A stretch of DNA of 64,000 bases from positions 31,126 through 95,125 of the forward strand of contig JBFRWK010000058.1 in assembly GCA_051439545.1 (NCBI GenBank), in the 5' to 3' direction. Positions 16,918-20,161 of this stretch are shown one piece after another. Below the pieces are notes generated by a model. The model saw only the letters and a program-made list of their open reading frames with translations. It searched no databases and was not told the origin of the DNA. A program made the translations under genes and the position numbers. Origin of the DNA: Xenococcaceae cyanobacterium (GTDB taxonomy: Bacteria > Cyanobacteriota > Cyanobacteriia > Cyanobacteriales > Xenococcaceae). Numbering within the stretch: the stretch's first letter is position 1; every line of letters starts with the position of its first letter.

Positions 16918-17673
16918 TTGTGGAGGAGGAAGTCAAATCCAGAAGATTTAAAGGAAACACAAACTAAAGATGGTAAGGGCGAATGTCTTTCGTCCCAATT
17001 AAATGGGTTAGACAGCCTATCAGAAATCAAAAAAGCCGAATTAGAAAACCACTGGCGTAATGCCATGCAGCAAGCAACAGTAATTGCCCGCACTACTAGT
17101 CAGGGAAGATTACCCGCAGGAATAGAGAGAGAATTAGGTGCATTAGACCGAACAAAATTAGACTGGCGTAGTTATTTATGGCGATATTTAGTTAAAACCC
17201 CTACTGATTATACAGAATTCGCTCGACGTTTTGTTGGCAGAGGATTATATCTGGAAACTTTACAGGGAGAATCTGTCAAAGTATATGTGGCGGTAGACAC
17301 TAGCGGATCGATTAATAACCAGCAATTAAAAATATTTTTAAATGAAGTCAAAGGTATTTTAAATTCTTACCCCCATATCGAATGCGAATTATATTATGCC
17401 GATGCGTATGTTTATGGTGCTTATGAATTAAATCTGGGTAGTGATATCCCTAAACCCCAAGGTGGTGGTGGAACTTCTTTTATTCCTTTCTTTGACAAGA
17501 TTGGAGAGCGTCATAATAGCATCACTACAGGGGTATGTGTCTATCTTACCGATGGTTATGGTAAATTTCCCGATTACATACCAAAATTACCAGTCTTATG
17601 GGTAGTCACGCCTGGTGGTTTAGATTTGTCTCGGTTTCCTTTCGGTGAAGCCATTAGATTGTTAATGGCATAG
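16918..17673 (+). CDS. VWA-like domain protein (DUF2201-type), apparently lacking the N-terminal metallopeptidase-like half
   Basis: 'VYVAVDTSGSI' MIDAS-like motif, 'GGGGTSF', 'VYLTDGYG'. The frame starts only at a TTG, and the usual ~150-aa upstream domain is not encoded in 16625-16917. Confidence 0.55.
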   Translation: MWRRKSNPEDLKETQTKDGKGECLSSQLNGLDSLSEIKKAELENHWRNAMQQATVIARTTSQGRLPAGIERELGALDRTKLDWRSYLWRYLVKTPTDYTEFARRFVGRGLYLETLQGESVKVYVAVDTSGSINNQQLKIFLNEVKGILNSYPHIECELYYADAYVYGAYELNLGSDIPKPQGGGGTSFIPFFDKIGERHNSITTGVCVYLTDGYGKFPDYIPKLPVLWVVTPGGLDLSRFPFGEAIRLLMA

Positions 17674-17698: not shown

Positions 17699-18325
17699 TC
17701 AAAGCCTAATTAGTCCCTTTCGCAATCCCAAGGTAACTGCTTCGGTGCGACTAGAGACATCGAGCTTAGAGAGAATCGAACTGATGTGAAATTTAACGGT
17801 ATGTTTAGATATATGAAGTCGTGAGGCGATCGCTTTATTATCCAAACCGACTCCTAACAACTGCAATACTTCTACTTCTCTAGAAGTTAGATAAATTGCC
17901 GAGGGAGATTCTGGAGTAATAGCAGGCTCGCTTTCCCCAAAAGATGCTAACTCTGGATGAATTACGATCAATCCAGCCATTACAGCATCGATCGTGGCAA
18001 TCATTTCCTCGGTATTAATTAGACGGGGTAAGAAAGCCTTAAAACCGAGACTGAGATATTCCCCCATTTCTTCAGTAGTTATTGAATCGCTTAACAAGAT
18101 TCCTGCCAGCTTGAAATCTACTGTTAACAGCCATCGCTCCAACCACCATAAATCTCGATCGAGCATTCGTTCTAATAGTAATAGATCGAAAGGGCGATCG
18201 CTCAAAGCTATTAAACTGGTTTCATCGATAAAACTCCCTACTATTTGTAAATCGGAGCGAGACAGGATGCTCATAATTCCAGCGATGGTAACTGAGTTAG
18301 AGTCATATACTGCAATCCTAATCAT
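17699..18325 (-). CDS. LuxR/NarL-type HTH regulator with atypical (Glu-for-Asp) receiver domain
   Basis: C-terminal 'LTSREVEVLQLLGVGLDNKAIASRLHISKHTVKFHISSILSKLDV'. The receiver-like N-terminus reads 'PFDLLLLERM' where the phospho-Asp is expected. The ATG overlaps the upstream stop (ATGA). Confidence 0.75.
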   Translation of the reverse strand: MIRIAVYDSNSVTIAGIMSILSRSDLQIVGSFIDETSLIALSDRPFDLLLLERMLDRDLWWLERWLLTVDFKLAGILLSDSITTEEMGEYLSLGFKAFLPRLINTEEMIATIDAVMAGLIVIHPELASFGESEPAITPESPSAIYLTSREVEVLQLLGVGLDNKAIASRLHISKHTVKFHISSILSKLDVSSRTEAVTLGLRKGLIRL

Positions 18326-18990
18326 CGAGAGATGGTTTTGATAAAATGTTCTACTCTTTGAGAGGGTATTGCCAAAGCCAAACCACCAAAAATTGCTACA
18401 TTAATCCCAATCACTTCACCACGAGCATTAGCTAAAATACCTCCAGAATTACCAGGAGCGAGACGAATATCGGCAACGATCGAACCATTGGGATAACCGA
18501 GATCGTCAGATGTTTTCTCTGTCCCATTAAGTTTAGTTTCTGCAAATTTCTGCCTAAGCGAGGCGTGGATAACCCCCATAGTTAAAGTCCCACTAAAACC
18601 GTAGGGATTACCCATTGCTAAAACTATTTCTCCTGGACGCAAAAGTTGAGAATTGCCGATGATAGGAGTAGGTAAGACCTCGCTTTTCTCAATTTTTAAT
18701 TGGATGGCAGCTAAATCGGCATGGGGGTCACTGGCAATTACCGACCCTTCGATAACTCTACCATTTTCTAGTTTTACCGAGAGGGGCGATCGAGTTTCCC
18801 AATTTTGCCCAATTGAGGTTTTGACTGGCGACTTCGACCTCCCCACCACATGAGAATTGGTTACTACCAAGCCTTTACTCGACCAAATTACCCCCGAACC
18901 TCCAGTATAGCGATCGCTAATTTCCACGGTCGAGCTTCTCAATTTTTGGGAAATTACTACTAATTCAGATTCTATATTACTAACGCTCAT
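18322..18990 (-). CDS. PDZ-less trypsin-fold (S1C/HtrA-like) serine protease
   Basis: Triad contexts are intact: 'VVTNSHVVG', 'HADLAAIQL', 'APGNSGGILAN'. ATG at 18990 is preferred; the ORF track uses TTG at 19011. Confidence 0.75.
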   Translation of the reverse strand: MSVSNIESELVVISQKLRSSTVEISDRYTGGSGVIWSSKGLVVTNSHVVGRSKSPVKTSIGQNWETRSPLSVKLENGRVIEGSVIASDPHADLAAIQLKIEKSEVLPTPIIGNSQLLRPGEIVLAMGNPYGFSGTLTMGVIHASLRQKFAETKLNGTEKTSDDLGYPNGSIVADIRLAPGNSGGILANARGEVIGINVAIFGGLALAIPSQRVEHFIKTISR

Positions 18991-19909
18991 TTCTCTTTCC
19001 GCTATCACCAATAGTTAGAGATAAATTTTGTAATAAACCTGCGCGAATCAACTGTATTTTGATAGTTTTGCCTACATTTTGTGGTTCTAAATAGGCTTGG
19101 ACATCTCTTAACTTTTCTATAGGGGTATCTTCAATTGAAGTTAAAATATCTCCCAGTAAAACGCCAGCTTGTTCGGCGGGAGCTAATGGTTCTAAGTTGA
19201 CTACCATCAATCCTTGCTTGGTATTTAAAGACAACTTATCGACTAAAGAGTCGGGTAAATAAACGGGTTGCATTGCCAACCCCAGATAACCCCGACTAAT
19301 ATTTCCCGTGGACAACAACTGCTCGACAACGCGATCGACCGTAGTAGCAGGTATAGTCAAGACGCTGCGACGAGGGCCAGTAGTATTGAAACCTACAACT
19401 TTTCCTGCTGCATTGACTAAAGCACTACCGCCACTTCCAGGGTAGAAATTAAGGTCTAAACGAATAAAGCGATCGATCTTTCCCCCCAGACTGCTGCGCC
19501 ATGAACCACCTACAGTACTAATTACTCCCTGAGAGACAAACAAACCTCTATCTTTGTCTCGACCAACAGCAAGTGCCAAATGACCTACTTTAAGTTCGCA
19601 GTTGCTATCTATAGGTGCAATAGGTAGAGAAACTTCAGTTTGAAATACGGCTACATCCGTACTGCGATCGCGTCCCAATAGAGTAACGGGGGTAGTTTCA
19701 CCATCGGGCAAAATTACGCTAATTCCTTCAGAACGTTTGATATTTTCTTCAGAGGTAATAATTATGCCTTCACGCCAATAGATACCGCTACAAGGAAAAC
19801 GCTGCCCTTCGATCGCGACTACAGATTTACCCACATTTTCGGCAATATCGGCTAAAGAATCTGAAAAAGCTACTAAGGAATTATTAATTGAATTTGATGC
19901 TGATGTCAT
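18980..19909 (-). CDS. HtrA-like protein with PDZ-like C-terminus and degenerate catalytic motifs (probable pseudoprotease)
   Basis: Trypsin-fold similarity is present ('STDVAVFQ', 'GVISTVGG'). The His box reads 'IIITSEENI' and the Ser box reads 'YPGSGGSALVN'. The C-terminal region 'GYLGL..GLMVVNLEP..PAEQAGVLLGDIL' is PDZ-like. Confidence 0.65.
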   Translation of the reverse strand: MTSASNSINNSLVAFSDSLADIAENVGKSVVAIEGQRFPCSGIYWREGIIITSEENIKRSEGISVILPDGETTPVTLLGRDRSTDVAVFQTEVSLPIAPIDSNCELKVGHLALAVGRDKDRGLFVSQGVISTVGGSWRSSLGGKIDRFIRLDLNFYPGSGGSALVNAAGKVVGFNTTGPRRSVLTIPATTVDRVVEQLLSTGNISRGYLGLAMQPVYLPDSLVDKLSLNTKQGLMVVNLEPLAPAEQAGVLLGDILTSIEDTPIEKLRDVQAYLEPQNVGKTIKIQLIRAGLLQNLSLTIGDSGKRNER

Positions 19910-20008
19910 TGATTAGATATTGAACTTAACGCTATTTGTATTTTGCTCAATTTAATTACTCACCTACATCAGTTATTTGGGTAGATATTGACCTAGAAAT
20001 TCGGGTAG

Positions 20009-20161
20009 GTTGAAACTCTCTCTAACCAAATAAACCAACTTTTAACTACTATTGGTAGGGATATTAATAATTCTCCCGAAAAAACTCGCGCTATGGTTTA
20101 CGAATCCGATCCTGATGCAGAATGGGCAACTCAGGAAATACAAATTACAGTTACAGAGTAA
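20009..20161 (+). pseudogene. orphan 3' fragment of a caspase-family gene
   Basis: It encodes '..QLLTTIGRDINNSPEKTRAMVYESDPDAEWATQEIQITVTE*'. This is a paralogue of the tail of the caspase wreck at 24344-24494 ('..EKTRAMIYESEPEAEWATQQIQITVTK*'). Stops lie just upstream. Confidence 0.65.

Follow-up and report, generated by a model that had tools for sequence, protein, structure and literature searches.

A 64,000-nucleotide (nt) stretch of DNA from a Xenococcaceae cyanobacterium (contig JBFRWK010000058.1 of GenBank assembly GCA_051439545.1; hereafter the window) carries three minus-strand genes with overlapping ends, here called A, B, and C, which encode two HtrA-like proteins and a LuxR-type transcriptional regulator. 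We consider it highly probable that these genes form a real, conserved, and self-regulated cassette made up of a catalytically dead protein with a PDZ domain (A), a live protease without one (B), and a regulator with a pseudo-receiver domain (C). A fuller account, in which the cassette is autoregulated, C drives the operon, and A, together with B where it is present, controls C, is plausible rather than probable when taken as a whole, and it is offered tentatively. The three open reading frames (ORFs) had been picked out in an earlier sequence-only reading of the window, and their coordinates and overlapping junctions were reproduced here.

Conservation of gene order and distribution of the cassette

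In a scan for A with one genome per species, 403 stretches were found, and hundreds of close relatives of A were recovered. The best 80 of the 403, which were examined, belong to Pleurocapsales, Nostocales, Coleofasciculaceae, Leptolyngbyaceae, Oculatellaceae, Chroococcidiopsidaceae, Gloeobacteraceae, and others; the scan loci and those from other neighborhood look-ups together make up a set of 84 loci. In about 75 of these 84, either B and C or only C comes next after A in the same orientation, most of the others being cut by contig ends, and the flanks of the cassette are unrelated between lineages. Because the order is kept in so many loci with unrelated flanks, the A-B-C or A-C arrangement is far beyond chance. 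The sequence-only reading had named co-occurrence across cyanobacteria as a check of its proposal, and in these same loci the three genes proved to be co-conserved.

The cassette is not confined to cyanobacteria. In the Chloroflexota class that contains locus L071, 16 of 21 genomes carry A at an E value of ≤1e-80, plus B, C, and the upstream element described below, and no phycobilisome genes were found either in the L071 Chloroflexota metagenome-assembled genome (MAG) or in the “Acetothermia” MAG. Eleven phycobilisome-protein genes are present in the MAG labeled “Rhizobium sp. Q54” (L059), which identifies it as a cyanobacterium in a mislabeled or misbinned record. When the phylum was sampled evenly, A was found in 15 of 401 genomes (8 of 156 genera), and all 15 are 6 to 8.5 Mb in size.

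A patchy distribution with enrichment in large genomes could be that of an antiphage or conflict system with a regulator-gated protease effector, and the neighborhood of the window cassette includes an island of caspase-like genes and the target of a diversity-generating retroelement. We nevertheless regard this explanation as very improbable. PADLOC gave no system match but only weak domain-level ones (RT-Protease_XI at 6e-10 for B and a CARF-helix-turn-helix region for C), the flanks differ in each lineage, and the key protein is catalytically dead; in addition, the tree of A is broadly congruent with the orders and suggests that descent was mostly vertical. The cassette is not described in the eLife conflict-systems paper, and a published description was not found in the literature on LuxR, HtrA, and PDZ in cyanobacteria, on the operator sequence, on HtrA pseudoproteases, or on MadR. 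Public records use the names “S1C family serine protease,” “PDZ domain-containing protein,” or, wrongly, “LuxR family transcriptional regulator.” The last name is attached to the Nostoc orthologues of A P0121, P0132, P0140, P0147, and P0148 (NCBI/UniRef), and it was apparently carried over from the neighboring gene.

Gene A encodes a pseudoprotease of active ancestry

According to Pfam, A consists of a Trypsin_2 domain (E value of 3e-20) and a PDZ_2 domain (6e-12), the latter corresponding to what the sequence-only reading had called a PDZ-like tail, and the protein matches the structures of DegP, DegS, and HtrA1 at 1e-32. In phmmer alignments with Protein Data Bank (PDB) chains, “IIITSEENI” of A pairs with “IVTNNHVI” of a DegP-like protease, “STDVAV” pairs with “ESDLAV,” and “YPGSGGSAL” pairs with “NPGNSGGAL.” The alignment to the DegP-like protein 7xs0 places E55, D85, and G160 at the His, Asp, and Ser positions of the catalytic triad. 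The sequence-only reading had suspected that His and Ser were lost and had asked for both proteases to be aligned to known structures; with that alignment in hand, the 309-residue protein has neither a catalytic His nor a catalytic Ser. Judged by these residues, A is a true pseudoprotease and not an active HtrA member. Among the invariant columns of A are those of the carboxylate-binding loop of the PDZ domain (R206-G-Y-L-G210) and of the stretch W137-R-S..G-G.I-D146, the counterpart of the L3 loop in alignments with DegS and DegP; A has thus kept both of the parts with which HtrA proteins sense C-terminal peptides.

The N-terminal hydrophobic segment is missing from A and also from B; the maximal 19-residue hydropathy within the first 70 residues is 0.68 in A and 0.67 in B, compared with 1.3 to 1.9 in the five canonical HtrA paralogues of the same genome (about 400 amino acids [aa]), all of which have such a segment. 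Both proteins are therefore predicted to reside in the cytoplasm, a location call made from this hydropathy measure only and not from a trained predictor. In NCBIfam, the Do/HtrA models are nearest to both proteins, with scores of about one-third of the cutoffs: against TIGR02037 (“Do family”; cutoff, 416 bits), A scores 156 bits and B scores 126 bits, and against the HhoA/HhoB/HtrA model (cutoff, 450 bits), the scores are 136 and 108 bits, respectively. Of the features that define HtrA membership, A has the trypsin fold and the PDZ domain but lacks the catalytic triad, a predicted extracytoplasmic location, and a score above the family cutoff, whereas B has the trypsin fold and the triad but lacks the PDZ domain as well as the location and the score.

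Relative to canonical HtrAs, A and B are separate, old, monophyletic paralogue clades (support values of 92 and 99). Over the 84 loci, the His column of A contains H in 18, E in 65, and Q in 1, and the Ser column contains A (34), S (20), G (15), E (9), or other residues. On the tree of A, which was rooted with B, the His position changes twice, once from H to E at the base of the 65-row clade (support of 92) and once from H to Q, and after the former change the Glu is invariant (65 of 65); the Ser position changes at least eight times. The basal lineages (Leptolyngbya, Phormidesmis, Oculatella, Gloeobacteraceae, and Chloroflexota) have an A with “VTADHTV...YPGFSGGPL” together with a long, PDZ-bearing B. 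Intermediates of the E-D-S type occur in Coleofasciculus and some Rivularia, the A proteins of Nostocales are E-D-A, and those of the window clade are E-D-G. As reconstructed on this tree, A is ancestrally active and underwent a single His-to-Glu replacement, followed by decay of the Ser.

Within the cassette, the strongest constraint is on the dead A, also where B is missing. In the window clade, the ratios of nonsynonymous to synonymous substitution rates (dN/dS) are 0.08 to 0.19 for A, 0.25 to 0.36 for B, and 0.11 to 0.27 for C; in pairs that both lack B, they are 0.09 to 0.17 for A and 0.09 to 0.20 for C. The loss of catalytic residues, the erosion of B, and the reduction of C to a 40-residue remnant in Fischerella muscicola PCC 7414 might be taken as signs that A is the product of a decaying pseudogene in a functionless cluster. 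This is almost certainly wrong, being already contradicted by selection, as seen in the low dN/dS of A, the invariance of Glu55 and many loops, and a reading frame of A that is intact in 84 of 84 loci.

Gene B encodes an active but dispensable protease

The only domain of B is Trypsin_2 (E value of 4e-25, Pfam), and the polypeptide ends directly after it, without a PDZ domain; B matches the DegP, DegS, and HtrA1 structures at 3e-24. As had been read from the sequence, the S1C triad is kept in the absence of a PDZ domain, with H47, D92, and S182 at the catalytic positions of the phmmer alignment. Among the loci, orthologues of B occur in a long form with a PDZ domain, occur in a short form, or are absent. 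His, Asp, and Ser are kept in all copies of B. Several clades lost the PDZ domain independently of one another, and all Pleurocapsales copies are among those without it. B is missing from at least 12 loci; in six B-less genomes, only canonical HtrAs (frames of about 350 to 440 aa) were found, with no B elsewhere.

Because A and C are still under purifying selection in loci from which B is absent, the A-C pair is regarded as the core of the cassette and B as dispensable, and proteolysis appears to be accessory since A and C persist without it. From its preserved triad, B is most likely an active, accessory catalytic subunit. The sequence-only reading had proposed a proteolysis-gated switch or a heteromeric protease. 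The division into a dead PDZ subunit and a live PDZ-less subunit fits the window lineage, but neither a heteromeric protease nor a proteolytic gate can be the core function of a family in which so many members have lost B.

Two Chamaesiphon genomes have C a further 4.3 kb downstream. In two genomes of this genus, the place of B between A and C is taken by a gene for a polytopic membrane protein of 1332 aa (L101:749-4747 in genome G432; also L069 and L073); the protein has about 14 hydrophobic segments and belongs to no Pfam family, and its gene overlaps at the 3′ end with the start of C. A full-length homologue of this protein (34% identity) is encoded elsewhere in the window's genome, at contig C126:3427-7386.

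Gene C encodes a pseudo-receiver regulator

Only a GerE helix-turn-helix (HTH) domain was found in C by Pfam (E value of 1e-19), with no match to Response_reg. The AlphaFold model, which was built with 30 orthologues, has a predicted local distance difference test (pLDDT) score of 86.6 and shows five strand-helix units followed by four helices; its best Foldseek matches are full-length LiaR, VraR, ChrA, DesR, and NarL, among which LiaR, VraR, NarL, and DesR are matched at E values of 3e-12 to 1e-9. Against the MadR family (NF047785), C scores 75.7 bits, below the cutoff of 300. C has the fold and the GerE HTH of a response regulator but neither the pocket residues nor a linked kinase.

When the family profile was aligned with LiaR and NarL, the receiver pocket of C was found to contain D8-S9 at the acidic pair, E52 at the acceptor, S79 at the Thr/Ser position, and R101 at the Lys position, which agrees with the Glu52 at the phospho-Asp position and the degenerate acidic pocket and Lys reported from the sequence. 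In 75 orthologues of C, the usual acidic pair is A-S, the residue at the Lys position varies, and the acceptor column contains D (38), E (31), Q, H, A, or V. Because the acceptor varies freely and the pocket is degenerate throughout the family, Glu52 is not a conserved phosphomimetic. The phosphomimetic role that the sequence-only reading had thought possible is not supported, whereas its suggestion of a phosphorylation-independent receiver holds. The absence of an adjacent kinase, which it had also pointed out, extends to the conserved cassette in about 80 loci. Judged by these columns, the C orthologues are a pseudo-receiver family throughout and cannot depend on phosphorylation.

In C, the recognition helix reads HTVKFH, and the protein ends in GLIRL. 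A GLIxL-COOH or similarly hydrophobic tail is found in nearly all 75 orthologues (the one clear exception is cut at a contig end), and the last six residues are nonhelical in the model. As a control, 17 other LuxR-type proteins of the genome were inspected together with LiaR and VraR; since GL[IV] near the end is common among them, the tail of C is carried only as a candidate PDZ ligand.

A conserved two-repeat element precedes gene A

The sequence-only reading had missed a conserved element upstream of A. It is a block of 43 to 45 nt situated 39 to 151 nt (median, 62) ahead of the A start, and it contains two direct repeats with a 24-nt period; the family consensus is CCTAGCCATTTTTCTAGG-N7-CTCCCCATTTTTCTGATG. 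The element is present in nearly every locus that has sufficient upstream sequence, Chloroflexota loci included. With a 45-nt position weight matrix (PWM) derived from 73 sites, the window element scores 46.3 bits and all other positions of the 7.05-Mb genome score ≤8, so that this matrix finds no candidate target of C in the genome other than the operon's own site. A PWM for the 17-nt half-site gave 117 matches versus about 70 in shuffles; these were treated as chance matches rather than a wider regulon, being barely above the shuffles, with the ten best all inside ORFs.

An RNA-element reading was rejected. The element has no Rfam match, and its palindromic CCTAG/CTAGG arms vary without compensation (TTTCCAGG variants); for both reasons, it is read as a protein-binding DNA site. 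Because the element travels with the cassette across two phyla and is kept by a solo A, C is its obvious binder, and the element is probably the operator of C. The core of the half-site (TACCCAT/TACCCAA) resembles the NarL heptamer TACYYMT, and TVKFH in the recognition helix of C resembles TVKVH of NarL. The solo A with an element is found in genome G433, on another contig than its full A-B(short)-C cassette (L027/L099), and this arrangement suggests regulation in trans. An apparent covariation between the recognition helix of C (ISKHTV versus ISEHTV) and the CCCAAATAAC operator variant was not counted as evidence, since it comes down to an event in one lineage and other CCCAAAT lineages keep ISE or ISD. 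In L016 and L018, about 108 nt ahead of A, an additional half-site-like insertion (CTACCCATCTACTACCCATTTATCTGATG) gives three repeats instead of two.

A conserved GCAnnAT block follows repeat 2 by 21 nt in 70 loci; the A and the T of this block show about 90% conservation, as would be expected for positions 2 and 6 of a −10 hexamer. A consensus scan upstream of A found neither a −35 consensus nor a canonical sigma-70 promoter. Because the −35 consensus is missing, the promoter of A looks activator dependent. A different possibility is that C represses its own operon and is cleaved or sequestered by A and B after a signal, as in ImmR/ImmA and DdrO/IrrE; pairs of a protease and a regulator with such logic are known, and repeat 2 ends at the −35 position. 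We consider repression quite unlikely, since the lack of a −35 consensus and the weak CAnnAT −10 suit activation, and since cleavage cannot be general where A is dead in most members and B is absent in many.

A tentative mechanism and its main rival

Under the mechanism that we favor, the operon would encode an autoregulated, cytoplasmic three-gene cassette of HtrA type. Most likely, C binds the pair of direct repeats, which lie at about −35 to −78 of the one promoter in the genome that has them, and activates transcription of A-B-C, and A would be a noncatalytic PDZ sensor or adaptor that binds C and clients and thereby controls C. In the window lineage, a complete ancestral protease pair would have been split into a sensing or adaptor subunit, A, and a catalytic subunit, B. 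The two proteins of the window are complementary, A having the PDZ domain and the L3 loop without the triad and B having the triad without the PDZ domain, as would be expected if the two formed mixed oligomers in which A senses and B cuts. Activation is known to pass between protomers in DegS and DegP. B, where present, would remove C by cleavage, and clients with exposed hydrophobic C termini would compete with C for A, so that a build-up of clients would leave more C free, as in a titration-type feedback. The physiological output would then be A (together with B where it is present), because no target of C was detected beyond its own operon.

A narrower claim is that the dead A directly holds or presents C, which would make it a cytoplasmic PDZ sensor and an HtrA protein that signals by binding instead of cleavage. 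Such a binding-based function would have arisen from an active protease pair by one fixed His-to-Glu replacement, with the operator kept across Cyanobacteria and Chloroflexota. Taken by itself, this claim is doubtful.

The main rival holds that C is a dedicated regulator that senses a signal of its own through the pseudo-receiver, with A and B as a holdase and a protease at its output and no contact between A or B and C. Such an arrangement would suit an operator that is unique to the operon, because the output must then be A and B; the chaperone activity of HtrA proteins survives mutation of the catalytic Ser, and a solo A with an element exists. We judge this rival somewhat unlikely but serious. 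The regulator is translationally coupled in nearly every locus of two phyla, which is typical of partner-controlled circuits, and no conserved ligand-binding motif was found in the receiver-like domain of C.

Several points weigh against the favored mechanism. If its own operon is the sole target of C, then C need not be under such control at all. The argument from the C-terminal tail is weak, as LiaR, VraR, and several further LuxR-type proteins encoded in the window's genome also end in GL[IV] followed by zero to two residues. The repeat element overlaps the −35 region and could equally serve a repressor. Finally, the AlphaFold model of A, based on a 17-sequence alignment, has a mean pLDDT of 54 and was left out of the fold search.

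Comparison with known systems

HtrA proteases are textbook enzymes of extracytoplasmic quality control and stress signaling. The closest parallels in logic are DegS-RseA-sigmaE of Escherichia coli and AlgW-MucA-AlgU of Pseudomonas, in which the PDZ domain and the L3 loop of an HtrA protease sense hydrophobic C termini and are tied to control of a transcription factor from the same regulatory circuit. Those systems are periplasmic and membrane anchored and combine a single active protease with an anti-sigma substrate and a sigma factor, whereas the two HtrA-like proteins of the cassette are predicted to be cytoplasmic, its PDZ-bearing member is dead, its regulator is a pseudo-response regulator of LuxR type, and many of its lineages can dispense with proteolysis. 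What appears to be new here, by comparison, is an HtrA-linked control of a transcription factor that would be cytoplasmic, centered on a pseudoenzyme, and provided with its own operator.

Other pairs resemble the cassette in part. MamO is a degenerate, noncatalytic trypsin-fold paralogue that promotes the function of MamE. MamE itself is an active HtrA protease of magnetotactic bacteria (bioRxiv 10.1101/047555), and the likeness lies in the combination of an active HtrA and a dead paralogue in one gene cluster. The two are, however, magnetosome membrane proteins without a dedicated transcription factor, MamO has been repurposed for metal binding, and the scores of A and B against the NCBIfam MamE and MamO models are far below the cutoffs. 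In the plant Deg5-Deg8 pair (PDB 4ic5 and 4ic6), a PDZ-less HtrA paralogue works with a PDZ-bearing one, and the Deg5 and Deg8 chains are both among the sequence matches of B; unlike A and B, these proteins reside in the thylakoid lumen, have the triad in both subunits, and have no linked regulator gene.

On the side of the regulator, C resembles atypical NarL/LuxR regulators (BldM/WhiI-type proteins of Streptomyces and VpsT), which combine a receiver fold without a working acceptor pocket with a GerE HTH and whose activity is set by partners or ligands and not by a kinase. VpsT is among the Foldseek matches of C, and its cyclic di-GMP motif was not seen in C on inspection by eye. We know of no atypical NarL/LuxR regulator that travels with an HtrA pair. 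With PspA-PspF and DnaK-sigma32, in which an effector restrains its own activator and is titrated by clients, the likeness is one of proposed logic only; it is an analogy of circuit design without any relationship in sequence or fold.

If the proposal is true, the HtrA paradigm would reach into the cytoplasm, with a conserved pair of HtrA-like proteins there connected to a transcription factor of their own. The loci would also provide an unusually clean pseudoenzyme series, every step of which is testable, leading from two active PDZ proteases through the fixed His-to-Glu replacement and the repeated loss of Ser to the loss of the partner's PDZ domain and then of the partner. The element and the regulator would constitute a compact and apparently orthogonal genetic switch that is common to two phyla with many filamentous, large-genome organisms.

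Layout of the window locus

The positions of all features are listed in Table 1. At the A/B junction, the TAG of A (18980-18982) and the ATG of B (18988-18990) give an overlap of 11 nt; at the B/C junction, the ATGA at 18322-18325 is common to the TGA of B and the ATG of C. B is translationally coupled to both neighbors. Two starts were considered for B, and the N termini of orthologues prefer ATG 18990 over TTG 19011. ATG 18990 was taken as the start because the orthologues begin six residues ahead of a conserved E[TS]EL motif, as B does from this codon.

Table 1. Genes and upstream elements of the cassette in the window
Feature	Position	Strand	Description
Gene A	18980..19909	minus	309 aa; HtrA-like pseudoprotease with one C-terminal PDZ domain, predicted cytoplasmic
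Gene B	18322..18990	minus	222 aa from ATG 18990; HtrA-like serine protease without PDZ domain and without signal peptide
Gene C	17699..18325	minus	208 aa; NarL/LiaR-type regulator, receiver-like domain and GerE/LuxR HTH
Bipartite conserved element	19967..20009	minus	Putative operator of C, from conservation and PWM uniqueness
Element repeat 1	19992-20008	minus	CTACCCGAATTTCTAGG; followed by a 7-nt spacer
Element repeat 2	19967-19984	minus	CTACCCAAATAACTGATG
Putative −10 hexamer	19940..19945	minus	CAAAAT; assignment inferred from alignment with the conserved GCAnnAT block

Two further loci in other genomes depart from the usual layout. The cassette of F. muscicola PCC 7414 (L062:3998-5000) is decaying, with A and the element intact and B absent, and its C is an N-terminal remnant directly after A. 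In the “Acetothermia” MAG, C is followed on the same strand by a further A-like paralogue (L033:6520-7428; 302 aa, 29% identity). In the window, the convergent neighbor on the 3′ side of C (16918-17673, plus strand), which is not kept beside the cassette in other genomes, encodes a DUF2201 protein resembling von Willebrand factor type A domains, whose metallopeptidase-like N-terminal region is only partial.

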